A stretch of DNA of 64,000 nt from sequence record NC_041877.1; one strand, 5' to 3'. Below, in pieces: positions 2,962 to 61,736 of this stretch. The position numbers were made by a program, and so were the translations under genes. This stretch comes from Pseudomonas phage SM1. Position 1 is the first letter of the stretch. Each line of letters begins with the position of its first letter. Below the pieces are notes generated by a model, which had not been told where the DNA came from, ran no database searches, and saw nothing but the letters and a program-made list of their open reading frames with translations.

Positions 2962-2963
2962 TT

Positions 2964-15010: not shown

Positions 15011-16360
15011 ATGGAAGACACCATGGCACAGACCAAGCCCAAGACCGCCCCGGTCGTGGAACAGGCGGAACAAGAAATCGTAATCGGCAGCCGAGTCAAG
15101 TTCCTCGGCTACGACGAGCAGACCAAGGAAGAGGATCGTATCCTCGAAGACGGCGGCATCTACCTCGTGGTCGGCTTCGAGCCGGAGCAGGAAGGTGACG
15201 ACGATGAAACCCTGCCGGTCCTTCAGGCGCCGAACCCGGGCTTCAATCCGAAGAAGAAGAAGCACCCGGAAACCAACCCGGAATTCCTCGAAGTCGTCTG
15301 CTTCCCCGAGGAAGTAGAGCTTTCTGACGAGGCCGACGAGGCCGAGGAAGAAGCCGAGGAAGAAGAAGTCGAAGAGCAGCCGGAAAAACCGGCGCGCGGC
15401 GCCAAGGGTAAGGCCGCCGACAAGGGCAAAGCTGCCGACAAGGGCAAGGCGCCGGCCAAGGGCAAGGCTGCCGAAAAAGCGCCGGCCAAGGGCAAAGCAG
15501 TGGCCAAGCAGGTCGAAGAAGAGCCGGAAGACGCGGGCGACCCGGTACTGGCCGACGTTCCCGATCTGGAGCAGGAAGACCCGTCCGTTCTCGATCTGGT
15601 AAACGACAACGACGATCTGATCGCTGCCGTCCAGACCATGGAAAACGAGATCGCCACCACCGAGTTCCAGATCGGCGGCATGCTGTACCACATCAAGCGC
15701 GAAGTGCCCTGGCGTGACATGGACCCTGCCTACGCAGAGCAGGGCGGTTGGGGCAAGTTCGTCGAGGCCTACTTCAACCTCGGCGCGCGTAAAGCCACCC
15801 AACTGATCGCGATCTACGTTCAGTTCAACCAGGCCGGCATCGCCAACCCGTCGGAAGTCGTATCGACCCTCGGCTGGTCCAAGGCGGCCAAGCTGTGTGG
15901 CTACCTCAACGAGGAAGGCGTCGATGCCGGCGAACTGATCGAACTCGCAGGCGAGACCGCCACCAACGACCTGTCCACGGTCCTCAAGGAGACCTACCGC
16001 GAAGGCGGCACCGGCGGCACCCCGGGCGAGAAGAAGGTGCGGGTTAAGGTGAACCTGTCCTTCGAGCAGGAGAAGGGCGAGCTGGTTCAGGACATCATCT
16101 CGGAAGCCGTCTCCACCTTCGGCGCGGCCACCGAAGAAGAAGCTCTGTTCCAAGTTCTCGTCGAGTGGCGCGCCAGTAACACCGCCGGCGGCGCGGCTGT
16201 CGATGCCAAAGAGAGCGGCAAAGAGGTGGCAGAAAAAGCGGTAGCGGACGCCAAGGCCAAGCGCGCCGGCGCCAAGCCCGCTTCGAAGCCCGCCGCCAAA
16301 CCGGCAGCCAAGCCAGCGACCAAACCGGCGACCAAGCCGGCCAGCCGTGGCCGTAAATAA
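15011..16360 (+). CDS. hypothetical protein with acidic N-terminal region, KGKA repeats and C-terminal KPA repeats (histone-H1/AlgP-like low complexity)
   Basis: GKAADKGKAADKGKAPAKGKAAEKAPAKGKAVAK and AKPASKPAAKPAAKPATKPATKPAS; followed by a strong intrinsic terminator. Confidence 0.55.
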   Translation: MEDTMAQTKPKTAPVVEQAEQEIVIGSRVKFLGYDEQTKEEDRILEDGGIYLVVGFEPEQEGDDDETLPVLQAPNPGFNPKKKKHPETNPEFLEVVCFPEEVELSDEADEAEEEAEEEEVEEQPEKPARGAKGKAADKGKAADKGKAPAKGKAAEKAPAKGKAVAKQVEEEPEDAGDPVLADVPDLEQEDPSVLDLVNDNDDLIAAVQTMENEIATTEFQIGGMLYHIKREVPWRDMDPAYAEQGGWGKFVEAYFNLGARKATQLIAIYVQFNQAGIANPSEVVSTLGWSKAAKLCGYLNEEGVDAGELIELAGETATNDLSTVLKETYREGGTGGTPGEKKVRVKVNLSFEQEKGELVQDIISEAVSTFGAATEEEALFQVLVEWRASNTAGGAAVDAKESGKEVAEKAVADAKAKRAGAKPASKPAAKPAAKPATKPATKPASRGRK

Positions 16361-16386: not shown

Positions 16387-16420
16387 GGGGCTCTCCATAG
16401 CGGGGAGCCCCTTTTTCTTT
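16387..16420 (+). terminator. rho-independent terminator
   Basis: GGGGCTCTCC-ATAGC-GGGGAGCCCC 10-bp stem followed by TTTTTCTTT. Confidence 0.7.
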
Positions 16421-16433
16421 GAGGAGAGAAAAC

Positions 16434-17144
16434 ATGGCTCTACAACGTAGCCGGCGCTCGGCGTCTTCGTCCAAAACCAACGCGAAGCCCCGACGTGCGG
16501 CTGAGCCCGTACGGATCAAAATCGACTATATCCCTATCGAGGAGATTGTCCCCTACGAGTTCAACGCCCGTAACAATGAGCAGGCCATCGAAGCGGTCAA
16601 AAAGTCTATTCAGCAATTTGGCTTTCTGAACCCGATTGTCCTCGACGAGAACAACGTGCTGGTCGCGGGCCATACGCGAACGGAAGCGGCCAAGCAACTA
16701 GGCTATATCGAGCTTCCGTTCGTAAGCGCAGCCCACCTTACTCCGGAGCAAGTACAGGCCTTCCGCCTCGTAGACAACAAAGTAGCTGAGATTGCTACAT
16801 GGGATGACGCACTCTTGGCGCAGGAAATGTATGCGATCAAGGAGATGTTTGATTTCACTGATTTCGGTTGGGACGCGGCAGAGATCGATTGCCTGGGCCA
16901 GCTTGTTTCTGACGATTGCCTACTCACTGCTGGTCTAGCTACGCCGGAGGAGGATGAAGAAGGTAGCGCCCGCCTTCCTGTGCGGCGTTCCCCGGCAACT
17001 GCGCGTATTGTGATCGGAGAGTTCGTCTTTTTCCGTCCGGCATCCTCAGTTCGCAATTTCCTCGACGGTCTGCGGCGTGCCCACAACGCCGACAGTGCGG
17101 CGATGGAAGAGGATATCGCTAACCGGCTTGGGCTACTGGATTAA
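16434..17144 (+). CDS. ParB-like nuclease-domain protein
   Basis: RBS GAGGAGAGAAAAC then ATG; IEEIVPYEFNARNN...NPIVLDENNVLVAGHTRTEAAKQLGY matches the ParB N-terminal (ParB/Srx) domain. Confidence 0.65.
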   Translation: MALQRSRRSASSSKTNAKPRRAAEPVRIKIDYIPIEEIVPYEFNARNNEQAIEAVKKSIQQFGFLNPIVLDENNVLVAGHTRTEAAKQLGYIELPFVSAAHLTPEQVQAFRLVDNKVAEIATWDDALLAQEMYAIKEMFDFTDFGWDAAEIDCLGQLVSDDCLLTAGLATPEEDEEGSARLPVRRSPATARIVIGEFVFFRPASSVRNFLDGLRRAHNADSAAMEEDIANRLGLLD

Positions 17145-17154
17145 GGAGCACCAA

Positions 17155-18711
17155 ATGGCACTTCGTCAGCGCCGCACCAGGGTGAGTGCAGCCGATAAAC
17201 TTACCTCGATTACTGTCGTCAATGTACCTACGGAGAACCACTCGCCCGACATCAAGAACCCGCGAAAGGCGGACCCTGCGCGTCTGGGCCTGCTTCGGTT
17301 GTCTATCGTCAAATTAGGGTTCCTGATGCCGATATTCGCGCGAGAACAGGACGGAACTTTGTTGTCTGGGCACCAGCGACAAAGGGTATGCCTGGAGGCG
17401 GGAATCCCCACCATGCCGACCGTGTACGTATCGCTCACGGAGCAGGAGATGATGGGTATCAACATACTCTTCAACCGCGTCACCAACGACTTCAGTGCTT
17501 TCGACACAGGCAGCACCGGAGTGGCCCGGATCAACATGAAACAAACACTGGAAGCGCTGGAGTCTTTGCCCGACTGTGACTTCAGTAACTTCTATGCAAA
17601 CGCTTGCAAAAACGAACCGATCAAAGTATTCGCGGCGGGTTGCGTAGACCAGTACGATAAAAAGGCCATTGTCACCGCCGGGGCGTTCGTTCGAATGGGG
17701 GTCAAAATCCCACTCGTAGTCAGTGAGTCTGGGGAGGTAGTAAATGGGGTCCACCGCCTATTCGCCGCTATTGAGAAGGGTTTGGATCAGTGGCCTGTAG
17801 TCCGTATCCCGGATCGCATCGCCGAGGTCGCTAAGATTGTTCTCAACTACCTGAGCATGGACTTCCACATCGACGAGGACTTCAAGGACCTTCTCCGTGG
17901 TGGTGCCTTCCGGCGAGTTTCAAATAACCGAGGTTTGGTGCCGAAGAGTTTTCGTTTCTGGGCCAATGGCGAACGATCTCTACTTGACAGGGATAGCTAC
18001 AGCACGGAGTTTTGGCTACGTTTCCGTGAGATACATGGTAACTCCATTCTCGATTTCGGAGCTGGGCTTTGCCGTGTAGCCCCCTACCTGCGGACCAAGG
18101 GATTCGAGGCAATGGATTTCGAGCCCTATCGCGTCGATCCCGTACTTAACGAAGCAGAGCCTAGCCCCGACTATAGCCGGTCCATGGCGAAGCAATTCCT
18201 GTCCGCTATCGCTGATCCTAGGCACAAATTCGATTCTATTTTTATGTCGGCAGTGATGAATTCGATTCCTTTCCCGGAGGATCGATTGAAGGTATTGGTT
18301 ATTGTGCATGCACTCTGTCGGCTGGATACTTCGGTTTACGGAACGTGCCGAGATATTTCCGATTTCTCCTACGAGTATGGCGGGGTAAGGAACGGTAACT
18401 ACTTCGTGATGGACGGAGAGCCGGGCATACGGTTGGGTGACATCAACTCTAGGCCTAAAATTCAGAAATTCATGACGCAGGACGAAGCTCGTAGCTACTT
18501 TGACCGCTTCTGGAACAAAGTCGAATTTTGGGAGGGTGGCAACGTTTTCTTCTTCCGTTTGTCTGCTCCCAAAGCACCGAATCTGAAAGCTCTGGGCCAG
18601 AGTTTGGATTTCGAATTTGGCGATCTGCCTTTTCTTGACGGCTCGCGTATGGGTTTAGCTAAAGAGGCTCGTGCGGCTTTCGCAAAGCGATTGGGGCGGG
18701 CGATTCCCTAG
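17155..18711 (+). CDS. ParB-like domain(s) fused to a class-I SAM-dependent methyltransferase domain
   Basis: AGGAG RBS then ATG 17155; ParB-like segments LSGHQRQRVCLEAGIPTMPTVYV and VVNGVHRLFAAIEKGLDQWPVV; MTase motif I ILDFGAGLCRVAPYL; no DPPY/NPPY motif seen. Confidence 0.6.
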   Translation: MALRQRRTRVSAADKLTSITVVNVPTENHSPDIKNPRKADPARLGLLRLSIVKLGFLMPIFAREQDGTLLSGHQRQRVCLEAGIPTMPTVYVSLTEQEMMGINILFNRVTNDFSAFDTGSTGVARINMKQTLEALESLPDCDFSNFYANACKNEPIKVFAAGCVDQYDKKAIVTAGAFVRMGVKIPLVVSESGEVVNGVHRLFAAIEKGLDQWPVVRIPDRIAEVAKIVLNYLSMDFHIDEDFKDLLRGGAFRRVSNNRGLVPKSFRFWANGERSLLDRDSYSTEFWLRFREIHGNSILDFGAGLCRVAPYLRTKGFEAMDFEPYRVDPVLNEAEPSPDYSRSMAKQFLSAIADPRHKFDSIFMSAVMNSIPFPEDRLKVLVIVHALCRLDTSVYGTCRDISDFSYEYGGVRNGNYFVMDGEPGIRLGDINSRPKIQKFMTQDEARSYFDRFWNKVEFWEGGNVFFFRLSAPKAPNLKALGQSLDFEFGDLPFLDGSRMGLAKEARAAFAKRLGRAIP

Positions 18712-18777: not shown

Positions 18778-19515
18778 ATGCTGACAAGAAAAGATGACAG
18801 GCCGGTGCATATGCCGGCCAACCCAGCTAAGTTTGAATTCGATGCCGAGGTGGCTGCTATTTTTCCGGACATGGCGTGCCGGTCCATACCGGATTTCCTG
18901 CGGGCTCACGACCTCCATGCGGAGTTATGCAGAGAGTTGTTCGAAGTTGGCCGTAACTCCGTAGCTGACCTGGGCGCCAGTCGCGGCCACTTCCTCGGGG
19001 CATTAAGTAGACGCTACGGTAAAGAGTTCCATGCTTACGCCTGCGACTATTCACTGCCAATGGTTGAGCATCTGCGCAAGGATTTTCCCTGGGCGGATGT
19101 GGAGCTGGTTGATCTGACCGCGCCCACTTTCTTCCATGATCGTCGTACGTATGACGTAGTTAATCTGTCGTACGTATTGCAATTCATCACTCCTGCAATG
19201 CAGCGCAGAGTGCTCGCCAAGGTGGTAGAAATGGTTAGGCCGGGTGGGTTGCTATTTATCGGGTCGAAATACGAGGTGCTTGGACAAGTAGGGGAAATGC
19301 TCCATCGTCAGTACATAGAGTGGAGAATGGAGCGTGGCTACTCTCGTGAGGAGATTGAAGCCAAGACCAAGGCACTAGCCGGAAGTATGTGGCCGCGCAC
19401 GCGTAATGCACTCCTCATCGACTTGAAGGATTTCGGTATGGAGAATATCTCTGATACTACCTACAACATGGTGTTCGGCAATATCGTGTGTCGTAAAGGC
19501 GGAGAACGAGAATGA
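18778..19515 (+). CDS. CmoA-like (carboxy-SAM synthase family) SAM-binding methyltransferase-fold protein
   Basis: N-terminus FDAEVAAIFPDMACRSIPDFL parallels CmoA [20 protein letters not shown]; motif I VADLGASRGHF; motif II-like YDVVNLSYVLQFI. Confidence 0.55.
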   Translation: MLTRKDDRPVHMPANPAKFEFDAEVAAIFPDMACRSIPDFLRAHDLHAELCRELFEVGRNSVADLGASRGHFLGALSRRYGKEFHAYACDYSLPMVEHLRKDFPWADVELVDLTAPTFFHDRRTYDVVNLSYVLQFITPAMQRRVLAKVVEMVRPGGLLFIGSKYEVLGQVGEMLHRQYIEWRMERGYSREEIEAKTKALAGSMWPRTRNALLIDLKDFGMENISDTTYNMVFGNIVCRKGGERE

Positions 19516-20354
19516 CAGATCGGACCGAAGATGGGCGTCGCCCAGTTGCGCGCCGCAATTTGCGCCGGGTGCGGGGTGGGGCACGCTTCGCCTCCAACTC
19601 TGGCAGTAGTAACTTGCGAACTCCACGAGATTTCGATGAGCAGGAGCACGATGACGTAGATGACGCCATTGATCCCCTCGCCGTACATCGCGGTGTAGTA
19701 TCCCGTGCTCGTGCAGATGATGCCGAGCCTGGGACGGATGTCTCTCCGGCTCAGCGGATGTTTGATGTGCAGCGAAATGCCCCAGCCAGTGTTTCACGGG
19801 AATACCGCCTGAATCTAGTTGGCCGGTTGTTGATGCGCAAGATTCCATTGGATCGGATCGCCCAACAACTGAACGTGTCTGTATCGACGGTAGAGAAAGA
19901 TAGGGCGGCCTGGAAAAAGATGCTAGCTGAACGGGCCCGCCAATTCGATGTGAACGAGTACATCGGCATTCAGTCGGAGTTCTACGACGAGGTGAGCGGT
20001 CAGGCAATGCAGATCGCCTCTATGGCAGCGGGTGAGAATGCCGTACCTACGGCCATGCGTTTGGCTGCGATGCGGACTGCGCTGGCTGGCCAAGCCGACA
20101 AGACTCGTACACTACAGTCTGCCGGCGTATTTGAGGCCGCGCGCTTCCGCCGAACTACGGACGGCTCTGCCATGAGCGATGTACAGATGCTTATGGCTCG
20201 GACTATGGAAGCTCTGGAAGACCTGATGCAGGCTGACGAGCCTCCACCTCCGCCGCCGCGCGGTGGGCCCCCGACAACCCGCCGACGTGACGGAAGCGGT
20301 TTCGACGATCTGACGTTGGATGACCCGGAGGAAGGGGAGGTTATGGAGCTATGA
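19512..20354 (+). CDS. putative terminase small subunit (HTH-containing); alternatively a sigma-region-4-like regulator
   Basis: Lies immediately upstream of and overlaps (ATGA) the large terminase; HTH-like LDRIAQQLNVSVSTVEKDRAAWKKM. Confidence 0.35.
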   Translation: MTDRTEDGRRPVARRNLRRVRGGARFASNSGSSNLRTPRDFDEQEHDDVDDAIDPLAVHRGVVSRARADDAEPGTDVSPAQRMFDVQRNAPASVSREYRLNLVGRLLMRKIPLDRIAQQLNVSVSTVEKDRAAWKKMLAERARQFDVNEYIGIQSEFYDEVSGQAMQIASMAAGENAVPTAMRLAAMRTALAGQADKTRTLQSAGVFEAARFRRTTDGSAMSDVQMLMARTMEALEDLMQADEPPPPPPRGGPPTTRRRDGSGFDDLTLDDPEEGEVMEL

Positions 20355-22282
20355 ACGTGAGTCCCATGAAGAAAACACGCCGTGTTCAAGCTTTTCTGCG
20401 CACCATAGAAAGCGTGTCGAAGGATATCGATAATGCGTTTTTTGGCCTGCTCTACCGTACGGCCATGGAGCGCATGGTCGATGGGGAGGCTACGCTGTTC
20501 GAGTTCCTTGGGCAGCTAGAGCATATGCCTGTGAGCATTGAAACCTTCCTCGACAGCGCGGAGTTCTTGGGCGCTACTGACTTGGTGATGTGGCCCGAGG
20601 TTCGAAAGGCAATCGTCGAGGAAAATCAGAACTGGTGGCGAGGCCTCGATACCGCTCCTGGCGCTCTCGGTGGGGCCTTTGATACGGCCTGCCTGATGGG
20701 TTGTACGCGTTCTGGTAAGTCTACCCAGGCCATCGTGGGGTTCATGTACCAGCTTCACATTCTGTTGTGTATGAAGAACCCGCAAGGCTGGTACGGGCTG
20801 CCCTCCGCTACCTCGATTGTCATGGCGATCATGGGCGCCAAACCTCATGTTACCAAGAAAGTGGTTTACGCGCCGATGAAGAAGTATATCGAGCGTATGC
20901 CATGGTTCCAGAAGTATGGAGTACCGGACAAGAATATCGACAGCGAAATGCTGTTCATCGAAAAGAACATTCGTGTTGTGCCGGTAGCGGGTAATGAAGA
21001 CGCGGTTCTCGGTGAAGCCTTGATCGCGTGTTTGATTGACGAGATCAACTTCATGAACGTGGTGCAGAAGTCCAAAAAGGCAGAAGTATCCACGGGGCGC
21101 TCTGGCGTATACGATCAGGCGCAAACGGTCTACGATACCGTGGTACGTCGTCGGCGTGGTACTTTCCCTAAACGGTACCCCCAGATCGGCATCATCTACG
21201 CCAGTTCGTCTACCCGGTACAAAGGTGATTTCACTGATAAGCTGAAGGCGGAGACCGAGAAGTTCAACCATAACAACGTCTACATTTTCAACAAGAAGCA
21301 GTACGAAGTTCAGCCCAAAGAAAACTTCTGCGGAGAGACGTTCCGTCTACTGATCGGCAATGATGTACAGCACGATACTCGTGTTCTAGGGCCGGACGAG
21401 GCGGTGCCGGAGGGGTCCTGGGTAGAGCTGGTGCCTATCGAATATTTGCCGGACTTCCAGCGTAAGCCCTATGACGCCATGCGAGACGTTCTTGGTATAT
21501 CCTCGAACGCGATCAGCCCGTTCATCAAAATGCGCTACCGGGTCTACGAGTGCGTTGAACTCGGCCACGAGAAGCGGTTGGAGTCGTTCCTTGAGAAAGA
21601 TCACGTCATTCTTGGCGTTGACGGTATGCCAAAAGTTCGACATGGGCACGTATGCACCAACCCGAGCAAGCCTCGGTACGTCCATATCGACCTGTCACGT
21701 ACTGGAGACCGCTGCGGTGTAGCGATGGTTCGCTTCGACGGGATGAGTAACTTTGAGCGGGCCGGGGACCAGTCAGAGCGGTTGCCGTTGGCTACGGTGG
21801 AGATGGCACTTTCCATCGAGCCAGATGCGAATAACGAGATTCAGATTGCAGAGGTGCGGTCCTGGGTTCGATCCCTTATTAAAGTGCATGGCTACCCGAT
21901 TAAAGGCGTTTCGTACGACGGCTTTGATAGCCGCGAGTCCATCCAGCAATGGCGTAAGGACCGCATGCCGTCCAAGGAGGTTTCGGTGGATCGTACCAGC
22001 GCGCCGTACAAGCAATTCCGCGATGCACTCTACGACAGGCGTGTAGCCCTTCTCGATGATCCCATCTTGCTGAATGAAATATTGGAGTTGGAGTACGACA
22101 CGCATAAGGACAAGATAGATCACCCGATGATGGGTAGTAAGGACGTATCCGATGCTGTATGCGGCGCGTATTGTAATATGCTGGAACGCCGAAGCACTTG
22201 GGCTGCCGTTCACGAGATCGATGGCGGTGATATGGCCGGCAGGTTCGAAGGCGAACGTTTTGACGATGATCGACGTTTTTAA
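20351..22282 (+). CDS. terminase large subunit
   Basis: 643 aa; Walker A GCTRSGKST; Walker B-like LIACLIDEINFM; C-terminal acidic nuclease-like region. Confidence 0.7.
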   Translation: MNVSPMKKTRRVQAFLRTIESVSKDIDNAFFGLLYRTAMERMVDGEATLFEFLGQLEHMPVSIETFLDSAEFLGATDLVMWPEVRKAIVEENQNWWRGLDTAPGALGGAFDTACLMGCTRSGKSTQAIVGFMYQLHILLCMKNPQGWYGLPSATSIVMAIMGAKPHVTKKVVYAPMKKYIERMPWFQKYGVPDKNIDSEMLFIEKNIRVVPVAGNEDAVLGEALIACLIDEINFMNVVQKSKKAEVSTGRSGVYDQAQTVYDTVVRRRRGTFPKRYPQIGIIYASSSTRYKGDFTDKLKAETEKFNHNNVYIFNKKQYEVQPKENFCGETFRLLIGNDVQHDTRVLGPDEAVPEGSWVELVPIEYLPDFQRKPYDAMRDVLGISSNAISPFIKMRYRVYECVELGHEKRLESFLEKDHVILGVDGMPKVRHGHVCTNPSKPRYVHIDLSRTGDRCGVAMVRFDGMSNFERAGDQSERLPLATVEMALSIEPDANNEIQIAEVRSWVRSLIKVHGYPIKGVSYDGFDSRESIQQWRKDRMPSKEVSVDRTSAPYKQFRDALYDRRVALLDDPILLNEILELEYDTHKDKIDHPMMGSKDVSDAVCGAYCNMLERRSTWAAVHEIDGGDMAGRFEGERFDDDRRF

Positions 22283-22306
22283 TGCAAGCGTTTGCACGGA
22301 GATACT

Positions 22307-22867
22307 ATGACCATTCTTTCCTATACCCGTCTTTGCGAAGTAGTGGACCGGGGCTATCTTAGTGGCCTTGAGGATCGGAGCCAGATAAACGCTGCAAGCA
22401 TAGACGTTCGTCTGGGTTGCACCTTTCTAGTAGAAGACGCACCTTTCGACGAGGACTATTTCACAGAACCTCCTTTGCTGAATGTAGATTTGGCGGCCAG
22501 GGAATCTGTGTGTTTCAGGGAACATAAGGGACGGATCAGGCTGGAGCCAATGGAATTTGTACTGGCCCATACTGTGGAGCAGTTTAACCTCCCGGACTGG
22601 TTATCCTGTGAATTCTCATTGAAGTCCTCCATCGCCAGGAATGGCTTGGAGCACCTCAACGCGTGTTGGGTGGATGCCGGGTTCAGTAGCTCGGTACTCA
22701 CCCTTGAACTGAAGAACATGACCCGTCATCATGCGCTGGTGCTAAGGCCCGGTATGCTGATCGGGCAGCTCAAGTTCTTCGAGCATGAACCGGTGCCGGA
22801 AGAGCAGAGCTATCGCAATCGCGGTCGCTACAACGGTGATGCTTCGGTGAGCACTATCAAACCGTGA
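22307..22867 (+). CDS. dcd: dCTP deaminase family protein (dUTPase superfamily)
   Basis: SIDVRLG, RSSIARNGLEHL...DAGFSSSVLTLELKN, LRPGMLIGQL align along the length of bacterial dCTP deaminase. Confidence 0.75.
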   Translation: MTILSYTRLCEVVDRGYLSGLEDRSQINAASIDVRLGCTFLVEDAPFDEDYFTEPPLLNVDLAARESVCFREHKGRIRLEPMEFVLAHTVEQFNLPDWLSCEFSLKSSIARNGLEHLNACWVDAGFSSSVLTLELKNMTRHHALVLRPGMLIGQLKFFEHEPVPEEQSYRNRGRYNGDASVSTIKP

Positions 22868-24767: not shown

Positions 24768-24839
24768 GGGGTGGTAGCTCAGGGGTAGAGCGAGCGTTTT
24801 CTAAACGCTTGGGCGTGGGTTCGAATCCCACTCACTCCA
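24768..24839 (+). tRNA. tRNA-Arg (anticodon TCT)
   Basis: Manual cloverleaf: acceptor GGGGTGG/TCACTCC, D arm GCTC-AGGGGTA-GAGC, anticodon arm AGCGT-TTTCTAA-ACGCT, T arm GTGGG-TTCGAAT-CCCAC, discriminator A; CCA not encoded. Confidence 0.8.
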
Positions 24840-42265: not shown

Positions 42266-42388
42266 TGAGTCCCGCACCGTTCGAAGCCTTGCGCAATTTC
42301 GATGAGGCGCACGTCGCATTGTTGGGGAGAATCAAGCGAGGTAAGAAACGCTAACCCTGTATAGGCAATTGCAAGCGCTTGCACAGCA

Positions 42389-42417
42389 GCCCCGGGTCAC
42401 TCCGGGGCTTTTCTTTT
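42389..42417 (+). terminator. rho-independent terminator
   Basis: GCCCCGG-GTCACT-CCGGGGC stem followed by TTTTCTTTT; preceded by a palindrome copy (42370-42383). Confidence 0.7.
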
Positions 42418-42429
42418 CCGGGCCGAACA

Positions 42430-43100
42430 TTCGGGGGCCCGAACGCTATACAGGAAATACCTATATAGACCTTCTATATGTACTTCCCCCCTTTGAGCCC
42501 TCTTATCCCCTATCCCTCCTATACAGTCCAGCCAGGGCGATCCGGGGGCCCTCCTACCTAACTTTCGGGGCCAGAACAAAAAGAAATACATATATAGGAG
42601 AGAATCCATATAGGACTATATAGATACATAGAGAGAGTATAGAGGAAGTAGATAGCTTGTGTTCTACCTGTGGAATGTTTGCAGCAAAAATTTTGTGAAC
42701 AGGCAAGGGGTGGCCTCTGCTGTAGCTATCTGTGTCCTTCTGCTGGCTGGCGTGACTTGTGTCCTAGCTAACGTGAGCTACTGACTGCTGGATGGTAGCT
42801 ATCGTGGATTCTGTGTGGGCATGTGATATGTACTACTGTTCTCTCTGCTGTCCTATATAGGGTACTTGCTGGTGGTATGGCTCCCTGGTGATGGCTGGTG
42901 ATAACTGGTGCTGCCCGCTGATCGCTGCTGGTGACTGGTGGTCTCTGCTGCTGGTGGCTGCTGGTGAACCCGGGCCGCTGGGTGGAGCCGCTCCTACTGA
43001 TGCTCTCCTATATAGGGCGTGTGGCAATTACGACCTGGGCTTCTGGTAGGTATTGCACTCCTATATAGGGAGACCATAATGGGGCCTACGAAATACACAG
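42430..43100. other. ~670-bp ORF-free repeat-dense hub (candidate early promoter cluster or origin)
   Basis: Contains the TATATAGG family motifs, CTGTGTGGGCAT, eight CTGGTG repeats including two exact GCTGGTGG, and three TCCTATATAGGG copies; no credible ORF on either strand. Confidence 0.6.
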
Positions 43101-43121
43101 TCACCCAGGAGGGGACACATC

Positions 43122-43367
43122 ATGCCGAGCACCTATCCCAATCTTGTCTTTTGCACCCTGCCGCAGGAGATCGACGGCGACCTGTATGTAGAAGGGTTCG
43201 AAGCTTCCAATGGAATGATCGATGTAGGTAGCTTCATCCTTTCCCAGGGAATGATCCAAGGTCTGGCCCCGCTCTGCGTTACTACCAGCGTCGAGGCTGG
43301 GCTTTCGTTCCTCGATAGCTTGGAACCGCCGACCGAATTGGATATCGCTTACCTCGACAGCCTCTAA
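43122..43367 (+). CDS. hypothetical acidic small protein
   Basis: ATG preceded by TCACCCAGGAGGGGA leader motif. Confidence 0.45.
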   Translation: MPSTYPNLVFCTLPQEIDGDLYVEGFEASNGMIDVGSFILSQGMIQGLAPLCVTTSVEAGLSFLDSLEPPTELDIAYLDSL

Positions 43368-43400
43368 TGCAAGCGCTTGCACCTATATAGGAGAATCATT

Positions 43401-43853
43401 ATGTACGCCATCTATGTACACGAACGCGCAGAGAACGGCGGCGCCGGAAAGCTGGTAGACCTGATAGTGCGCGAAAGCATGTCAGAGGCGCACCGCGCCG
43501 CCTGCCGCCAGTATGGTTTTAAAAAGATGGTTTTCAAGCCGGGCGATCTACCCTTGTCCACCATCGCGGAGCTATACGAAAATCTCGACACCCGTGAGCG
43601 CTTTTTCGAACGCGTCAATACTCTGGAGCTGCGCCAGGGCGACATCGTTGTCCATACCCTCGGCTTGATCCACCTAGGCGAGCGGCTCATCAGTGAAGCT
43701 CATAACGACGTGAAGGATGATGGCGGATGGTGCGAGTATGGGCCGGACGACGAGCTGCTCTGGGCGTGGCCTTCCGGCATCTCTACCTCTACCCGGAAAT
43801 ACAATATCCAAGGTAACGGCCTCGCCAACTGGATTCGGTTCAAACGTACTTAG
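43401..43853 (+). CDS. hypothetical protein
   Basis: ATG after GGAGAATCATT; the start embedded in the palindrome/TATATAGG motif was rejected. Confidence 0.45.
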   Translation: MYAIYVHERAENGGAGKLVDLIVRESMSEAHRAACRQYGFKKMVFKPGDLPLSTIAELYENLDTRERFFERVNTLELRQGDIVVHTLGLIHLGERLISEAHNDVKDDGGWCEYGPDDELLWAWPSGISTSTRKYNIQGNGLANWIRFKRT

Positions 43854-44145
43854 TGGATCGGGGCCCGGTGTGGCCCCATCTCTGTTATTACTCCCTGGTG
43901 ATCCTGTGTGGGCATGTGTATTTAATTACTGGTGACTGGTGAAGCTTCCGGCCCAGTGATCGCTGGTGAAGTGGAAACCCCTGTAGCACGCCATTGACGT
44001 GCTTCACCGCTGGTCGAGGGGTACAGACGTGCTACAACTTTTGGCACGGTCCGTGCTACGCCCGCGCGCACCCGTTTCCTCCTTCTGGTAGGGAAAGCAG
44101 GTGCAAGCGCTTGCCTTGTGTTATGAAATTATTTTGAAAATATGC

Positions 44146-44174
44146 TTGACCTGGCTCTGTGAGGTACATATTAT
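44146..44174 (+). promoter_or_regulatory. sigma70-like promoter (TTGACC-17-TATTAT) with an AT-rich UP-like element
   Basis: -35 TTGACC at 44146-44151, 17-nt spacer, -10 TATTAT at 44169-44174; upstream AT-rich TTATGAAATTATTTTGAAAATATG. Confidence 0.55.
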
Positions 44175-44227
44175 GACTTCCAAGCCAGGCAATACCGCCT
44201 AGGCAAGTCACCCAGAGGGGACGTACC

Positions 44228-44794
44228 ATGCAAGCTCTCATTGAAAAGAACATCGCCGAAACCGCCGCCCAAGTTACTGAAGCTCCGGCCAAGGCCAAAA
44301 AAGCCACTGCCGCCAAGCCCGCAGCCAAGCCCGTCAAGAAAGCGGCAGCCAAGCCCAAGGCAAAAGCTCCGGCCAAAGCAAAAACCGCAGCCAGCAAAGG
44401 CGCAGCCAAGCCCCGCGCGGCCAAGGCGAAAGCAGCCACTACCGCAGCTTTCTTTATCCATCCGCAGTTCCGTCCGGTAGCCGGGGCCCGTCTCGCAGCT
44501 CATACCGAGGCCGTTCTTCAGTATTTCGGTCTGTACGGCGAAGGCGTCAAAGTTTCCCGCCGGGAGCTGGCGCGCGTAATGGGCGATACCGCAGTCGGTT
44601 ACCACCTTAACAAGACTCGCAATTTCGAGGAGTCCGACAAGATGATCAGCCTGAGCAAAGTAGGCCGTATTGCCTTCGGGGCCCGTCAGGGTAACGTACG
44701 CGACGAAGAACGCGATGCGTTCCTGGCCATCTTCCGGACCGGCAAGGCGAACGAGATTGCCCATATCCCGCAAGACTTGATCCTGGCCGCGTAA
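44228..44794 (+). CDS. histone-H1/AlgP-like DNA-binding protein (AKP-repeat N-terminus plus globular C-terminal domain)
   Basis: ATG preceded by TCACCCAGAGGGGA leader motif; N-terminus AKAKKATAAKPAAKPVKKAAAKPKAKAPAKAKTAASKGAAKPRAAKAKA. Confidence 0.55.
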   Translation: MQALIEKNIAETAAQVTEAPAKAKKATAAKPAAKPVKKAAAKPKAKAPAKAKTAASKGAAKPRAAKAKAATTAAFFIHPQFRPVAGARLAAHTEAVLQYFGLYGEGVKVSRRELARVMGDTAVGYHLNKTRNFEESDKMISLSKVGRIAFGARQGNVRDEERDAFLAIFRTGKANEIAHIPQDLILAA

Positions 44795-45434: not shown

Positions 45435-45680
45435 CGCAAGCGCTTGCACGGGGGCTCCAATCGGGGCCCTTCTTTATGCACCCCCTATGCCATATAGGAA
45501 TAATCCACCATAGAAATTCTCTATCCAAGAACGGTCGTGGCGCAGCACAGTTTTTATACCCATGGGATTTTGAATACCCCCTATTCACTTTTTTCGTCAA
45601 CGGGCAGACCACCAGACCACCACGCGAAGTTGGCAGACAGCATCATGACTCTCTCATGATTTGGGCAGCTCTCATCGCAA

Positions 45681-50104: not shown

Positions 50105-50126
50105 TTGCTTTGGTTTATAGGACTCC

Positions 50127-52609: not shown

Positions 52610-52990
52610 ATGAGCAAATTCGACACGCGTAATGCTGAGAAGTTCGTGGTCCGTATGCCGCCTGGGATGCGCTCCGAGATCGGTAAACTGGCCTCGCAAA
52701 ATCACCGCAGCATGAACTCCGAAATCCTCGACAGGCTGACGGCCAGCCTCGCGGGTCTGCCGCTCGATGGCGGACCTCCCCAGGAGAAGGTATGGACGCC
52801 GGTACGCGGTATGTTGGTGGAGCACCCAGGCGGGTTCGGTATTATCGAAGATTTCTACCTGAGCGCCGGGCAAGTTTTTGCTGAAGTGGAAACCTTCAAT
52901 CGTGCCGGGAAGGTAAGTGCCAACTACCCGTTGAGCAGTCTCAGGCCACTGATAGCCCGCCAAGGGCTTGCCGACATCTACGAGTCCTGA
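52610..52990 (+). CDS. ribbon-helix-helix (Arc/CopG family) transcriptional regulator
   Basis: N-terminus KFVVRMPPGMRSEIGKLASQNHRSMNSEILDRL is a typical RHH beta-strand plus two-helix motif. Confidence 0.55.
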   Translation: MSKFDTRNAEKFVVRMPPGMRSEIGKLASQNHRSMNSEILDRLTASLAGLPLDGGPPQEKVWTPVRGMLVEHPGGFGIIEDFYLSAGQVFAEVETFNRAGKVSANYPLSSLRPLIARQGLADIYES

Positions 52991-53050: not shown

Positions 53051-53701
53051 ATGGATCAGATAGACCGCAATACCCTAGGCGACGCTGTAGCTGCCTTTCT
53101 CGCCAATGGTGGCTCGGTTGAACAGTGCCCGCCCGTCGAGCCCAGTAGTAGAAAGCCGAAAACCACGCGCCGATCCAAGTCACCTCGGGCTAGTGGATTG
53201 CCAGAAACCCACCCGTTTGATGTTCCTCTGAGCCTTGGTGAACGTACCCATGCGAGCGCCGTTAAACGCTGCGTAGAGCAAGGGTACAGCCTGACGCAGG
53301 CAGTGAAGCACCTGGGGCTCCCTCGTGATGTTGTCCTGCGAATCTGCCGAGAGTATCAATTTCGACTACGCGGCCCTCGCCCAGAAAGCGAAACCCAGGC
53401 TATACAGGCTCTAGCAGAACGGTACGCCATAGGAGACTGTCACGCGGTAGCCTGTCGAAAACTGGGATTGGACCAGGGAGTTTACCAAACCGCCTACGCC
53501 CGCTACCGGGCCGCCGACCCTTCTCTACCGGAGCCTCCCTCCGCGTCTAGCTATTCTGAAGCTCAGATTCTTTCTATGCTGCTGCTAGGTCTTCGACAGG
53601 GCCGCAAACTGATAGAGATCATAGACGACAACGGCCTGAATACGGCTGAGGCTATGCGCATCTACGACCGGCATAGGCGCGCTCGCCGCCGATTACTGTA
53701 G
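53051..53701 (+). CDS. hypothetical protein with HTH-like segments
   Basis: GYSLTQAVKHLGLPRDVVLRICREY HTH-like segment. Confidence 0.45.
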   Translation: MDQIDRNTLGDAVAAFLANGGSVEQCPPVEPSSRKPKTTRRSKSPRASGLPETHPFDVPLSLGERTHASAVKRCVEQGYSLTQAVKHLGLPRDVVLRICREYQFRLRGPRPESETQAIQALAERYAIGDCHAVACRKLGLDQGVYQTAYARYRAADPSLPEPPSASSYSEAQILSMLLLGLRQGRKLIEIIDDNGLNTAEAMRIYDRHRRARRRLL

Positions 53702-57934: not shown

Positions 57935-58259
57935 AGTCCGCGTAAGACCGGCGCGGGGGGTAGAGGAGCCCGTAAAACCGGTAGAGTTGATCCCCGTACG
58001 CACCGAAACACCACCGGAGCGCGAGGTAGTTCATTCTTGGTCGGACCGTGTTGATTATGATGCGATCATCCAGAACTACAAGTCTAAGGCCACCAGTTAC
58101 AAAACTGCGATACGCTCCCATTGTGTGGATTGTATGGGCGGCCTGGTACAGTCGATCAAGGATTGCACGTCCTACGACTGCTCGTTGTACCCCTTCCGGA
58201 TGGGCGAGAACCCGTACGACGCCCGGACCGTTAAGGCCAGGGAAAAGAAAGAGGGCTGA
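57846..58259 (+). CDS. hypothetical Cys-rich (zinc-ribbon-like) protein
   Basis: CVDCMGG...CTSYDC motif; basic N-terminus. Confidence 0.4.
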   Translation: MATSSRIRPKRSAPVGQEAQEKKTTLARPRVRVRPARGVEEPVKPVELIPVRTETPPEREVVHSWSDRVDYDAIIQNYKSKATSYKTAIRSHCVDCMGGLVQSIKDCTSYDCSLYPFRMGENPYDARTVKAREKKEG

Positions 58260-58263
58260 CAGC

Positions 58264-58917
58264 ATGCAGATAGTAGGACTTACGGGTCTTCCTCGCAGCG
58301 GGAAAGACACTCTGGCCAATCTAATGGTGGCAAGGCATAGCTGGATTAGGATGGCCTACGCCGAGCCGCTGTACGAGGAGGTAGCGGAAGCCTTCGGGGT
58401 CACGGTGGTTCAGCTACTTAGCAACGAGTGGAAGACACAGCCTCAAGCGCGCTTGGTAATCGACCGCTGCACTGACAAGGAATTTTTCGATGTATTCGAA
58501 AAAGCCATGGATGGTGATTGTCTCTACCGGTACAACACCTCTCGAACCATTTTGCAGTTGTGGGGGACTGAGTACCGGCGCCTGTCTTGCCGCCAATCAT
58601 ACTGGACCGAGAAGATGGAGCAGCGCATCATGGAGGCCTATCACAACGGGCACTCAAGGATCGTCGTGTCAGATGTGCGGGTCTTTCTCGACGGGCAGGG
58701 CCAACCCGTTTACGATGAGTTTGAATGTCTGGATTCCTTGGCATTCGAGCTGGGAGGTTCTATGAAGTTGGTAGAAGTCCTCCGGGAGGGTACTACGAGT
58801 AACGGCCATAGCAGTGATTCGCGGTTCCCTGACCATCTGATATACGCCAAACTCAACAACAACCGGACGCCGGAAGAGTTATTCTTCCAGGCTGGAAAAA
58901 TGGGAATAGTCACATGA
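58264..58917 (+). CDS. dNMP-kinase-like P-loop nucleotide kinase
   Basis: MQIVGLTGLPRSGKDTLANLM parallels the T4 gp1 dNMP kinase N-terminus (MKLIFLSGVKRSGKDTTADFI). Confidence 0.6.
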   Translation: MQIVGLTGLPRSGKDTLANLMVARHSWIRMAYAEPLYEEVAEAFGVTVVQLLSNEWKTQPQARLVIDRCTDKEFFDVFEKAMDGDCLYRYNTSRTILQLWGTEYRRLSCRQSYWTEKMEQRIMEAYHNGHSRIVVSDVRVFLDGQGQPVYDEFECLDSLAFELGGSMKLVEVLREGTTSNGHSSDSRFPDHLIYAKLNNNRTPEELFFQAGKMGIVT

Positions 58918-59660
58918 CCATTGCAAAAGATAGCAACGCCGACGCCGCGTTTTCTCAAATGTTTCCCAAGGGTTTGGACATGTGCGAGCTGGATGCGCGC
59001 ATGCACCAGCTTTTTGGCAACCGCGAAGGCAATAAGTTCTCCCCGAGCTGGGCCGACCTACAGCGGTATACTGACATTCTGAAATCCGAAGTTGAGGAAC
59101 TGGAGAAAGGAGTAAACGAGCAGGATTTCGTCGAAGTTCTCGATGGCCTTGGTGATATTCTGACCGTTCTCCACGGCTTGGCCAACTTGGCTGGCGTCGA
59201 TATTCGAGAAGTATGGATGCGGGTGTTCGAGTCCAATCTCACTAAATTCTGCCGTAACGCCGGTGAGATGGAGGCCACCTTGGAAAAATATAAAAACCAG
59301 GGCGTATCAGTAGAGGCGGGCGGCGTATTCCCCTTTGCCTACGTCACAACTTCGGAAGCTCAGGTAGTAAACGGGCGTCAGGTGCCGAAGGGCAAGTTTC
59401 TCAAGTGCGTACGCTTCACGGAGCCGGATTTTTCGGACCTCTTATCAAGTGAGTACAAAGGCACCCGTAGCCTTGTAGGTATGTTGGATAGTTTCGATGT
59501 ACCGCTACAGCACCGGCTTCGGAGTATGCTGACGGGAGCCAAACCACGACAGGCCTCCGAGCGTATCCTTCTACAGCTCGAAAGCCAAGGTATGCTGAGC
59601 CCTGTAAGCCAGCCGTCGAACGCGAAGCCGACCCCCAGGGTCCGAGATATCCTGAGATAG
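58914..59660 (+). CDS. MazG-like nucleotide pyrophosphohydrolase
   Basis: LKSEVEELEKG...EVLDGLGDILTVLHGLA matches the MazG EExxE / E..D..GD metal-binding helices. Confidence 0.6.
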   Translation: MTIAKDSNADAAFSQMFPKGLDMCELDARMHQLFGNREGNKFSPSWADLQRYTDILKSEVEELEKGVNEQDFVEVLDGLGDILTVLHGLANLAGVDIREVWMRVFESNLTKFCRNAGEMEATLEKYKNQGVSVEAGGVFPFAYVTTSEAQVVNGRQVPKGKFLKCVRFTEPDFSDLLSSEYKGTRSLVGMLDSFDVPLQHRLRSMLTGAKPRQASERILLQLESQGMLSPVSQPSNAKPTPRVRDILR

Positions 59661-59761: not shown

Positions 59762-60121
59762 ATGGGCAATGAAACTGCGTCCGTATTTCCTGCGTTGGTG
59801 CAAGAAGTGTTGTCCGGAGACGATCTGGTTTTGTTGGTAGACCTGGGAGTTGATGGCTTGCATAAGCGCGTGCGGGTACGGCTTAAAGATGTGGATGCAC
59901 CCAATGCGATACGGCAGGGTTCGGATACGGAAGCTGGAAAACTGAGGGACCGAGTTGCAAACCTTTGCAACCACTCGAAGGTTACGGCCACTGTAGTCAA
60001 GAAAACTGCACATGCTTGGGTAGTGATCCTCAACCTTGAAACTTCTGACGGGCAGAACATCGACCTGAATGAAATGCTCAAGAGCGAAGGCTACGTCTAC
60101 CGGGGGCTACGAAATGAGTGA
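59762..60121 (+). CDS. hypothetical protein
   Basis: RBS GGGAGAAACGAT then ATG. Confidence 0.4.
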   Translation: MGNETASVFPALVQEVLSGDDLVLLVDLGVDGLHKRVRVRLKDVDAPNAIRQGSDTEAGKLRDRVANLCNHSKVTATVVKKTAHAWVVILNLETSDGQNIDLNEMLKSEGYVYRGLRNE

Positions 60122-61736
60122 AACAACCCAACGAGTTCCGCGCCGTCGCCGGGCCTCCGCGATCACTGCGCGTTCGACCGTAATTCAGGTCAAACGTGCA
60201 GACGCTGATACCTCGCGACAAGTGGATTTTCTAGAGGACTGGACCGGCATTGATTCTGCCGGCGGGATTATTCTGCTTCCGCCGTACGACCCGGGTCGTC
60301 TTTTCGAGATCATCGAAACCTCTAACGCCTTGCGGCCCTGCATCGACGCCTACGTGACAAACGTAGTCAAGCCGGGGTGGGAAGTAGGGCCGATTCGTCG
60401 TGGCGCCAAGATCAATGCTGGCGAGGCTGACGAGCTTCAGTCTTTTATCGAGTACGCAAACAGCGACCAGAACCTGGAAGCGGTCTTGGATGCGGCTGTG
60501 CGTGACCGGGAATCAGTAGGCTACGGATTCGTAGAGGCTATTCGCGACCTATCCAACAATCTCAGTCTTTTCCGCCATGCGCCTGCGCTGCATACGCGCC
60601 TTGGGGTCAAGCACCCGCAGGAGGTTGAGGTTCGCTACACGATAGCCCGTGGTCGTCGAGTTACGACCGTTACCGAATTCCGCCGTTTTCGCAAATTCGT
60701 TCAACGAGTGAACGCAAGGACCGTGTGGTTCAAAGAGTTTGGCGACCCGCGCCGCATGAACCGCAATACTGGTCTCTTCGAGGGCGAAGACGGCTATACC
60801 CCCGGAGCCGATGCCACTGAAATTCTGCACCTGAAACTGCCGTCCAACGAGCCTTACGGAGTGCCGCGCTGGATTAACCAGCTTCCCTCGATCATCGGCA
60901 GCCGCGAGGCTGAAGAAGTAAACATGCGCTATTTTCAGGAAAACACGGTGCCCCCGATGATGCTGACGGTTTCGGGTGGCCGGCTTACTGCCTCGTCGTT
61001 CAAGAACCTGACCAACATGTTCACGCAGAACACCGGCCAGGAGCGCCAGAACCGCATCATGATCGTGGAAGCGGTAGGTGAAGGAGACAGTCTGGATAAC
61101 AAAGGCTCTACTATCCAGATGAAGGTCGAGAAACTTACCGATGCCCGCCAGTCGGACGCGTTGTTCAAGGACTATGACGCAGCCAACATGGCTAAAGTAC
61201 GGTCTTCCTGGCGCCTAGGTGCGGTGCTTGTCGGTATGGGTAATGAGACCAACTACGCTAACGCGCAAGTGGCAATTGCGCTGGCTGAAGCCCAGGTATT
61301 CGGGCCCGAACGAAGTGACATGGATGAGCTTCTGAATAAGTTGGTTGTCAACGGTTATCGAGGTCTGGCCCTGAAGACCTGCAAGTTGGTATCTCGCGTT
61401 CCGCCGATCAGCAGTCCGGAAATGGTCATCAAGGCGTTGACCGCACTGAACGTGATGGGTGGCGTAACTCCGCGTAGCGCTATCGATGCGGCAAATACCT
61501 TCTTGCAAACCGAGCTGCCGCAATATCCGGAGAAAGGGGAGGCCGGCTATGAACCCTGGATGGACCAACCTATGGCGAGGTCCATCAAAAACAGCGGCGG
61601 GGAGTCCACTACTGGCAAGCTCCCGACAACTCATGCCGGCCAGAGTCTCAAAGATGACGCTACCAAGTCATTGGAGCAAGATGGCGATATCGAGTTCCGG
61701 GCCCCGGAGCATGGTAGGGAGGGTGAAAGCCTATGA
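60114..61736 (+). CDS. putative portal protein
   Basis: 540 aa; first gene of a head-morphogenesis-like block ending in an HK97-like capsid gene; no motif-level support. Confidence 0.4.
   Translation: MSETTQRVPRRRRASAITARSTVIQVKRADADTSRQVDFLEDWTGIDSAGGIILLPPYDPGRLFEIIETSNALRPCIDAYVTNVVKPGWEVGPIRRGAKINAGEADELQSFIEYANSDQNLEAVLDAAVRDRESVGYGFVEAIRDLSNNLSLFRHAPALHTRLGVKHPQEVEVRYTIARGRRVTTVTEFRRFRKFVQRVNARTVWFKEFGDPRRMNRNTGLFEGEDGYTPGADATEILHLKLPSNEPYGVPRWINQLPSIIGSREAEEVNMRYFQENTVPPMMLTVSGGRLTASSFKNLTNMFTQNTGQERQNRIMIVEAVGEGDSLDNKGSTIQMKVEKLTDARQSDALFKDYDAANMAKVRSSWRLGAVLVGMGNETNYANAQVAIALAEAQVFGPERSDMDELLNKLVVNGYRGLALKTCKLVSRVPPISSPEMVIKALTALNVMGGVTPRSAIDAANTFLQTELPQYPEKGEAGYEPWMDQPMARSIKNSGGESTTGKLPTTHAGQSLKDDATKSLEQDGDIEFRAPEHGREGESL

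Follow-up and report, generated by a model that had tools for sequence, protein, structure and literature searches.

The window analysed here is a 64-kb stretch of DNA, about two thirds of the genome, from phage SM1 of Samunavirus, a genus of Pseudomonas aeruginosa siphophages with genomes of approximately 93-95 kb that also comprises PaMx31, PA_L9, UF_RH6, FBPa45 and the BHU records. Identity to PA_L9, PaMx31, UF_RH6, FBPa45 and the BHU records ranged from 97 to 99.7%. The remaining ~29 kb, which hold structural and some other genes, were read from PA_L9 as a proxy, and coordinates were converted by adding 37,924 to the PA_L9 position to obtain the window position. Every annotated gene of PA_L9 is on one strand, so the single-strand gene order originally noted for the window is true of all the genes annotated in that genome. 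The genome start is set differently in each of the database records of the genus.

The last and the first genes of this one-strand genome meet at a gene-free stretch of 766 bp (42356-43121), referred to here as the hub, bounded by the stop codon of the last gene at 42355 and by the start codon (ATG) of the first at 43122. The original prediction had described an ORF-free hub of about 700 bp, and the annotation bears this out: the ORFs inside the hub are short and unconserved, and three 1-nt indels between isolates break an 84-aa ORF. The features of the hub and of its right-hand neighbourhood are the following:

42356 to 42624, no strand assigned: degenerate copies of the motif with one mismatch, CCTGTATAGG at 42356, CCTATATAGA at 42460 and CATATATAGG at 42589.
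42445, 42518, 42605 and 42615, no strand assigned: degenerate copies with two mismatches, in the same 42356 to 42624 block.
42370: a copy of the 14-bp hairpin palindrome.
42388 to 42418, plus strand: strong intrinsic terminator with a 9-pair GC-rich stem and TTTTCTTTT, closing the preceding gene block.
42807 to 43050, plus strand: upstream module with CTGTGTGGGCATGTG, the CTGGTG array and CTTCTGGTAGG, common to 43880-44100.
42851 to 42862, plus strand: motif copy 1, TCCTATATAGGG, exact, preceded by TGCTG, with flanks unlike those of the other copies except for TGC.
43006 to 43017, plus strand: motif copy 2, TCCTATATAGGG, exact, preceded by TGCTC.
43053 to 43080, plus strand: P1, the candidate first early promoter, TTGCAC (43053-58), 16 nt, CATAAT (43075-80).
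43059 to 43070, plus strand: motif copy 3, TCCTATATAGGG, the first 12 nt of the 16-nt P1 spacer.
43122 to 43853, plus strand: the first two genes 3' of the hub, for an 81-aa acidic protein (43122-43367) and a 150-aa protein (43401-43853).
43382 to 43391, plus strand: motif copy 4, CCTATATAGG, with the hairpin palindrome 43368-43381 before it and the second gene's ribosome-binding site and ATG (43401) after it.
43854 to 44227, plus strand: IGR2, a paralogous intergenic region with the consensus promoter TTGACC-17-TATTAT (44146-44174) and without TCCTATATAGGG.

From left to right, the degenerate sites lie within a C/T-rich and then AT-/purine-rich block (GC 0.35-0.37 at 42550-42700), followed by a G/T-rich stretch that holds CTGTGTGGGCATGTG and motif copy 1. 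An array of CTGGTG with a 10-bp period occupies 42866-42966, between copies 1 and 2, after which come copy 2, CTTCTGGTAGG, TTGCAC, copy 3, CATAAT, the leader AGTCACCCAGGAGGGG and the first ATG. The terminator of PA_L9 differs by an inversion of its central 6 nt (GTCACT to AGTGAC) that leaves the stem intact. Neither the 81-aa nor the 150-aa protein had a family match.

Three other readings of the hub as a whole were considered and set aside. A non-coding RNA found no support: no Rfam match was obtained in the hub at E <=1, its folding energies were no better than those of shuffles (z -1.05 and -0.12), and no tRNA was detected in it. As to a nested inverted-repeat or mobile-element structure, only one pair of arms besides the motif cores was above chance (42591-42606/42999-43014, 15/16). 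A set of Chi sites was suggested by the CTGGTG/GCTGGTGG array, in which the E. coli Chi octamer occurs twice; the Pseudomonas Chi, as determined in P. syringae, is GCTGGCGC and not GCTGGTGG (PMC5959072), and the hub contains a single 7+1 variant of it, GCTGGCGT at 42746.

The 12-mer TCCTATATAGGG was found as three exact copies on the plus strand, at the positions originally reported for it (42851, 43006 and 43059), whereas none occurred in any of 100 dinucleotide-preserving shuffles, so that the expected number of copies is zero. Its inner 10 bp, CCTATATAGG, form a perfect palindrome of a length that suits a protein dimer, and are present as four exact copies, namely the three 12-mers and 43382-43391. 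Seven sites with at most one mismatch were detected genome-wide, all of them in the 1,036 bp from 42356 to 43391, and none was detected in the other ~92 kb, as read from the window and the ~29-kb PA_L9 proxy. When two mismatches were allowed, 11 of the 30 window sites were inside this 1-kb hub stretch. Among the relatives listed at the outset, CATATATAGG at 42589-42598 and the site at 43382 were retained, but the one near 45478 is CCATATAGGA at 45489, which has two mismatches and is background-like, there being 19 other two-mismatch sites in the window outside the hub. The motif cluster is thus real, statistically solid and unique in the genome.

The three 12-mers share one orientation, which is that of the genes, and TGC at positions -5 to -3 (TGCNN followed by the 12-mer), and nothing else. 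Their cores are 100% identical, whereas their 25-nt flanks are identical at only 4-9 of 25 positions, which is the level of chance, indicating a selected short site rather than a recent duplication. The successive copies are spaced by 155, 53 and 322 bp. The 53 bp between the centres of copies 2 and 3 correspond to approximately 5.0 helical turns, so that proteins bound at both could cooperate from the same side of the helix, while the 155 and 322 bp spacings do not amount to a whole number of turns.

Isolates were compared using five near-identical genomes from different countries. The motif and P1 were invariant in all five, with about 1.5 motif substitutions expected between these near-identical genomes and none seen, too small a difference to amount to a real comparative test. 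The phage collection contributed ten Samunavirus records only, at 95-99% identity, the BHU ones being concatenations of genes without intergenic DNA. No distant relatives of the genus were recovered from IMG/VR with the motif pair or with three hub-proximal proteins as queries, and a search of 5.8 billion proteins with the 196-aa protein adjoining the hub gave no homologue from beyond the genus. A single metagenome scan with the motif pair gave two matches, both in unrelated satellite-like contigs, and the look-up of encoding contigs gave GenBank records only. Literature searches with either palindrome retrieved only papers on eukaryotic CArG boxes and unrelated ones.

A permissive scan of 42300-44300 identified P1 as the sole sigma-70-like hexamer pair in the hub, a weak one (8/12), in which copy 3 sits directly after the -35 hexamer, inside the spacer; the contexts of copies 1 and 2 are not promoter-like. 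A sigma-54 reading of the TGG...TTGCA by copy 3 was rejected, the arrangement being GG-N8-GC and the required one GG-N10-GC. The second intergenic region, IGR2, carries one of the four matches of at least 10/12 on the plus strand of the whole window, together with an AT-rich upstream element. IGR2 is collinear with the right half of the hub, with which it has in common CTGTGTGGGCATGTG (78%, 32 nt), CTCCCTGGTGAT, CTGGTGACTGGTG, GCCC..TGATCGCTG, CTTCTGGTAGG (83%, 18 nt) and the leader AGTCACCCAG(G)AGGGG (87%, 15 nt). Its promoter occupies the place equivalent to that of TTGCAC-copy 3-CATAAT in the hub, upstream of the same leader, suggesting that copy 3 lies where a promoter is to be expected. 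Taken by itself, a pair such as P1 would be weak evidence of a promoter, and the paralogy with IGR2 would strengthen it; the motif, in turn, appears to be what sets the first promoter region apart from the second.

The copies had originally been read as T7-promoter-like elements, with the suggestion that a gene for a single-subunit RNA polymerase could lie outside the window. T7-type promoters are asymmetric elements of about 17-23 bp that are spread along the genome and need their own polymerase. Every ORF of at least 270 aa, both in the window and in the PA_L9 sequence that stands for the remaining genome, was scanned against Pfam or PHROG, and none of them belonged to an RNA polymerase family; nor was any RNA polymerase found in the annotations of PA_L9, UF_RH6 and FBPa45. 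The scans matched a DNA polymerase A fused to a UDG domain, DnaB-like and DEAD-type helicases, a primase, a UvsX-like recombinase, a ParB-methyltransferase, the large terminase, portal, tape measure, tail fibre, endolysin, PhoH and an AAA ATPase, and the few ORFs without a family match were of low complexity or otherwise unlike polymerases. As far as the sequence tells, the complete genome encodes no phage RNA polymerase, and the T7-like reading is not supported.

Several points speak for the T7-type reading. Copy 3 contains TATAGGGAGACCA, which is identical over 13 nt to the start region of the T7 phi10 promoter, TATAGGG is present in all the copies, and the genes follow one strand; by our own count against the textbook consensus, copy 3 agrees at 15 of 23 positions without gaps. 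However, a 2-nt gap is needed to align its CACTCC with the ACTCAC of T7, and the T7-like downstream flank exists in this copy only. The similarity between the copies is limited to the 12 nt and TGC and does not extend to the specificity region (-17 to -8); the conserved core is palindromic, and the motif is found at one locus of about 1 kb instead of before gene clusters along the genome. Moreover, TATAGGGAGACCA in copy 3 reads equally well as a ribosome-binding site followed by an ATG (43079), an arrangement like that at the genuine gene start behind copy 4, with 77% identity between these contexts over 22 nt. The 50-aa ORF that begins at this ATG is disrupted in UF_RH6 by a 1-nt insertion. 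The start codons at 43401, 44849, 48615 and 49796 are each immediately preceded by TATAGGAG, the sequence further upstream not being shared. On these grounds, it is extremely unlikely that the copies serve a single-subunit RNA polymerase of the phage as promoters.

The other suggestion made originally, that of an operator or iteron set in a control region, fits the data, and motifs of this kind are familiar as putative binding sites in phage control regions. The best explanation, which we advance tentatively as something short of probable, is that the TCCTATATAGGG copies are operators for a symmetric-dimer phage DNA-binding protein at the first early promoter. It builds on several direct observations: the dyad-symmetric motif, the confinement of that motif to one region, the place of one copy in a promoter candidate, and the existence of a paralogous region with what looks like a real promoter. 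The site is the non-coding junction that leads from the terminator of the last unit (42388-42418) to the first early unit, where the sigma-70 RNA polymerase of the host would start early transcription from P1. A regulator bound to copy 3, in the P1 spacer, would block the polymerase. Its occupancy may be aided, through cooperative binding or looping, by copy 2 (five turns upstream), by copy 1 and by the degenerate copies, and copy 4, before the ribosome-binding site of the second gene, might act as an additional roadblock. The predicted outcome is the specific shut-off or autoregulation of a two-gene immediate-early unit (43122-43853), while the motif-less consensus promoter at 44146 would be unaffected.

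The most obvious candidate for the regulator is the following protein:

52610 to 52990, plus strand: Arc/Mnt-like ribbon-helix-helix protein of 126 aa (Pfam PF03869, E=1.2e-15; PHROG 'Arc-like transcriptional regulator', E=7e-66).

Ribbon-helix-helix proteins bind as dimers to short dyad-symmetric boxes. The DNA-contacting strand of the phage protein, KFVVR, is unlike those of Arc and Mnt, so that its target is not predictable, and other helix-turn-helix candidates are encoded, including the HTH protein at 53051-53701. Several observations stand against the operator reading. P1 is weak and copies 1 and 2 are outside promoter-like contexts; the common orientation of the 12-mers and their TGC extension are not required by a purely symmetric operator; and the start of the FBPa45 record, 1 nt from copy 2, is left unexplained.

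This last coincidence favours a different role, in which the copies would be terminase recognition or cutting sites, or else the mark of a fixed end or a nick in the DNA. The genes concerned are:

19512 to 22282, plus strand: candidate small terminase (19512-20354, weak HTH_7) and large terminase (20351-22282).

In such a case the physical left end would be at 43005 and the early genes would enter the cell first, with a layout like that of the lambda cosB R-sites, the phage P1 pac hexamers and the arrays adjacent to the T7 terminal repeats. T7-, T5- and N4-type phages have fixed ends at the junction of the last and first genes, which is what the hub is in this one-strand genome, and the ends of N4-like genomes are not known to lie in the gp53-like gene. 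In FBPa45, the first letter of the linear record corresponds to 43005, just 1 nt upstream of copy 2, and the last to 43004; by our own arithmetic, a random cut of a 93-kb genome would fall within 2 nt of one of the three copies about twice in 10,000. The large terminase has its closest relatives in large siphophages whose terminases are annotated, a phased CTGGTG array that might be a platform for the small terminase lies between copies 1 and 2, and the symmetry of a palindrome would allow a single enzyme to nick either of the strands. According to its authors, the record starts of the FBPa45 study were set with PhageTerm, but FBPa45 was assigned to the class 'New' (Table S3) from a transposase-type library, and libraries of that type were declared unsuitable by the authors of PhageTerm. 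In addition, FBPa1, an N4-like phage of the same study and class that serves as a control, starts in the middle of its gp53-like gene. The FBPa45 start was consequently downgraded as proof of a physical end. UF_RH6, for its part, was reported as circularly permuted by PhageTerm, there are three or four copies where one site would be expected, the terminase genes are 21 kb away, and the CTGGTG array and adjoining blocks recur upstream of the second promoter, which argues that they are not specific to packaging. The coincidence keeps a role in packaging, or as an end or nick, alive, and we consider such a role unlikely. Given that a plain symmetric operator leaves the record start, the common orientation and the TGC unexplained, two further readings were also contemplated, a dual-use palindrome serving as packaging end or nick and as early-promoter switch through one complex, or a new class of promoter for the host RNA polymerase with a SutA-like HTH factor; both are improbable.

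The remaining alternatives take up other parts of the same evidence. The copies might be functionless relics of the duplication of a local gene-start cassette (half hairpin TTGCAC, TATAGGAG-type ribosome-binding context and ATG), the palindrome resulting from the head-to-head juxtaposition of two TATAGG units. The similarity between the contexts of copies 3 and 4, which continues up to ATAATG and ATTATG, respectively, the disrupted ORF after copy 3, the recurrence of TATAGGAG before four start codons, and the common blocks from which the hub and IGR2 are built agree with such a history; but relics should decay evenly, a perfect 10-bp dyad would not persist four times, three copies are identical over 12 nt with flanks at chance, and the copies are kept in five of the five isolates. 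Duplication may be possible for the origin of the copies, with a poor fit to four perfect dyads amid diverged flanks, and we regard the view that they are mere relics as quite unlikely. A replication origin, also contemplated in the original prediction, would make the sites iterons for a phage initiator and the AT-rich segment at 42550-42700 the unwinding element, consistent with eleven related sites in about 1 kb of non-coding DNA adjoining a trough of low GC (0.35-0.37). It drew little support, however: no DnaA boxes were found in the hub, the cumulative GC skew shows no switch there, the replication genes are far off (window 1-19 kb) with no initiator gene adjoining, and the exact copies are irregularly spaced and palindromic, whereas typical iterons are direct repeats, making an origin very unlikely. 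The core also holds a -10-like TATATA and the 12-mers all point in the direction of the genes, as they would if they were a phage-specific promoter element for host RNA polymerase retargeted by a phage factor, for which the candidate is the helix-turn-helix protein at 53051-53701, with weak HTH and SutA-like RNAP-binding-domain matches. Yet a motif restricted to the hub could not drive middle or late genes, a transcript from copy 4 would be almost leaderless, and the SutA match is under the Pfam cut-off (21.7 vs 29.3 bits), so that retargeting is very improbable.

The sites offer a concrete handle on how the genus starts and shuts off early transcription, as well as a defined target for simple experiments. 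Samunavirus phages are used or considered for P. aeruginosa therapy; PA_L9 was given to a patient, and UF_RH6 was obtained from a lung. A tempting but wrong T7-type annotation is removed: there is no reason to expect that Samunavirus phages have, or depend on, a T7-like polymerase. If the link to a terminus were true, the correct genome start for the genus would be fixed.

Compared with known systems, the SM1 copies resemble T7-group promoters (consensus TAATACGACTCACTATAGGGAGA) in having TATAGGG in all of them, GGGAGACCA in copy 3 and the orientation of the genes, and differ from them in the absence of a cognate polymerase and of a conserved -17 to -8 region, in being palindromic and in their confinement to a single locus. 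T4 late promoters, with their lone TATAAATA box, are the comparison for an element used by a retargeted polymerase. The terminase repeats of lambda (cosB R1-R3/R4), phage P1 (pac) and T7 (repeat arrays) are similar in that an element of 12-17 bp, in three or four copies, and a phased hexamer array occupy a gene-free junction, and in that one database record starts 1 nt from an SM1-type copy, whereas the SM1 terminus is putative, the terminase genes are 21 kb off and the hexamer array is found at the second promoter too. As regards operators, those of Arc, Mnt and lambda measure 17-21 bp and the SM1 sites 10-12 bp; unlike in the Arc, Mnt, MetJ and lambda systems, two exact SM1 copies are off promoters and an asymmetric extension, TGCNN-T...G, is present in all; and, unlike the phages with Arc/Mnt/lambda-type operators, the SM1-type phage is reported to be virulent and its sites are putative operators. 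On the other hand, P22 Arc/Mnt at the immI promoters, the 8-bp boxes of MetJ and the OR/OL triplets of lambda have in common with the SM1 sites that short dyads are present in several copies in a non-coding control region; as with operators of these types, one SM1 copy is located between the -35 and -10 hexamers of a promoter candidate, and, as in P22, the SM1-type phage encodes a protein of the Arc/Mnt family.

The intergenic region at 43854-44227 is paralogous to, and collinear with, the right half of the hub, the gene-free junction at 42356-43121. CTGGTG arrays occur in both; the promoter listed after them belongs to the second region.

42866-42966 and 43895-43970: CTGGTG hexamers, phased at 10 bp
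44146-44174: near-consensus sigma-70 promoter, TTGACC-17-TATTAT, with an AT-rich upstream element, in the second intergenic region

The CTGGTG arrays are located upstream of both candidate early promoters (43053-43080 in the hub and 44146-44174), and eight of the 17 copies of the hexamer in the window fall inside 100 bp. The E. coli Chi octamer GCTGGTGG is present twice in the array, but these octamers are probably not Chi sites, since the Pseudomonas Chi, as reported for P. syringae, is GCTGGCGC (PMC5959072) and not GCTGGTGG. Two proteins carry AlgP / histone-H1-like (A/K)KPAA repeat tracts, and the first is the product of the gene predicted to lie behind the consensus early promoter; a possible polymerase-binding factor and a tRNA locus are listed with them.

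44228-44794 and 15011-16360: proteins with AlgP / histone-H1-like (A/K)KPAA repeat tracts
53051-53701: 216-aa protein with weak helix-turn-helix matches, which also resembles the SutA RNA-polymerase-binding domain at a sub-threshold score
24082-24110: near-consensus promoter, TTGACA-16-TATTAT, upstream of the tRNA-Arg(TCT) gene
24768-24839: tRNA-Arg(TCT) gene

The SutA-domain match (E=1.3e-4, 21.7 bits) lies below the cut-off of 29.3, and the 216-aa product may be a factor through which the phage acts on the host RNA polymerase. The ARAGORN tmRNA calls overlapping the tRNA-Arg(TCT) locus are probably false.

Recurrent sequences were also found at translation starts, where a leader, (AGT)CACCCAGAGGGGA, immediately precedes several start codons, and at several early genes TATAGGAG stands 6-8 nt 5' of the start codon. 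The latter is an extended ribosome-binding context, seen mainly within 43-50 kb.

38760, 41660, 43099, 44206 and ~34815: leader (AGT)CACCCAGAGGGGA, for start codons at 38774, 41675, 43122, 44228 and a GTG at ~34830, respectively
43386, 44834, 48601 and 49780: TATAGGAG; variant TATAGGAC at 50116

Near-identical isolates differ around the hub. At the centre of its intrinsic terminator hairpin (42396-42401), six nucleotides read GTCACT in the window and AGTGAC, its reverse complement, in PA_L9, although the stem is identical in both; the difference is a loop inversion. Just upstream of 42266, where the 196-aa gene is followed by the hub, PaMx31 and FBPa45 have about 430 additional bases with two small ORFs; neither the window nor PA_L9 or UF_RH6 has this segment. 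UF_RH6 has additional genes (~0.9 kb) downstream of 43853.

The large terminase is about 40 kb away from the portal gene (60069-61736), and its neighbours are replication and nucleotide-metabolism genes. The UF_RH6 product labels look shifted by several genes, with "terminase small subunit" on a tail-fibre-like gene and "minor tail protein" on the terminase; in PA_L9 the portal is named "DNA replication protein".

20351-22282: large terminase, 35% identical to proteins annotated as terminases in Rhizobium and Vibrio phages
2952-5870, 22292-22867 and 58048-59660: a fusion of DNA polymerase A with a UDG-family domain, a dCTP deaminase, a dNMP kinase and a MazG-like pyrophosphatase

Taken together, the latter set gives a hint of modified DNA or of a non-canonical nucleotide metabolism, and this could also distort sequencing read-start statistics. 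The record starts in the study of the N4-like phage FBPa1, which also described FBPa45, are said to have been set by PhageTerm; caution is needed in using them as termini, because the FBPa1 record (L012, ON857943; 1-600) begins mid-gene, inside a gp53-like gene.

The 14-bp palindrome TGCAAGCGCTTGCA is dispersed through the genome, with 23 copies in the window at two or fewer mismatches, against 0.35 expected, and eight further copies in the rest of the genome (26-55 kb of PA_L9). All 23 have at most one mismatch, and 18 are exact or changed only at position 6 or 9, which form the loop of a hairpin with a 5-bp stem; the next base is usually C. About nine of the 23 lie immediately 3' of a stop codon, in the short gap preceding the next gene.

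6542, 14894, 22283, 40883, 42370, 43368 and 59661: example copies of the palindrome, spread window-wide
16419-17144 and 17077-18711: ParB-like proteins encoded by the phage

No mention of this palindrome was found in the literature searched. Its distribution is similar to that of the mycobacteriophage stoperators and to that of KorB operators.
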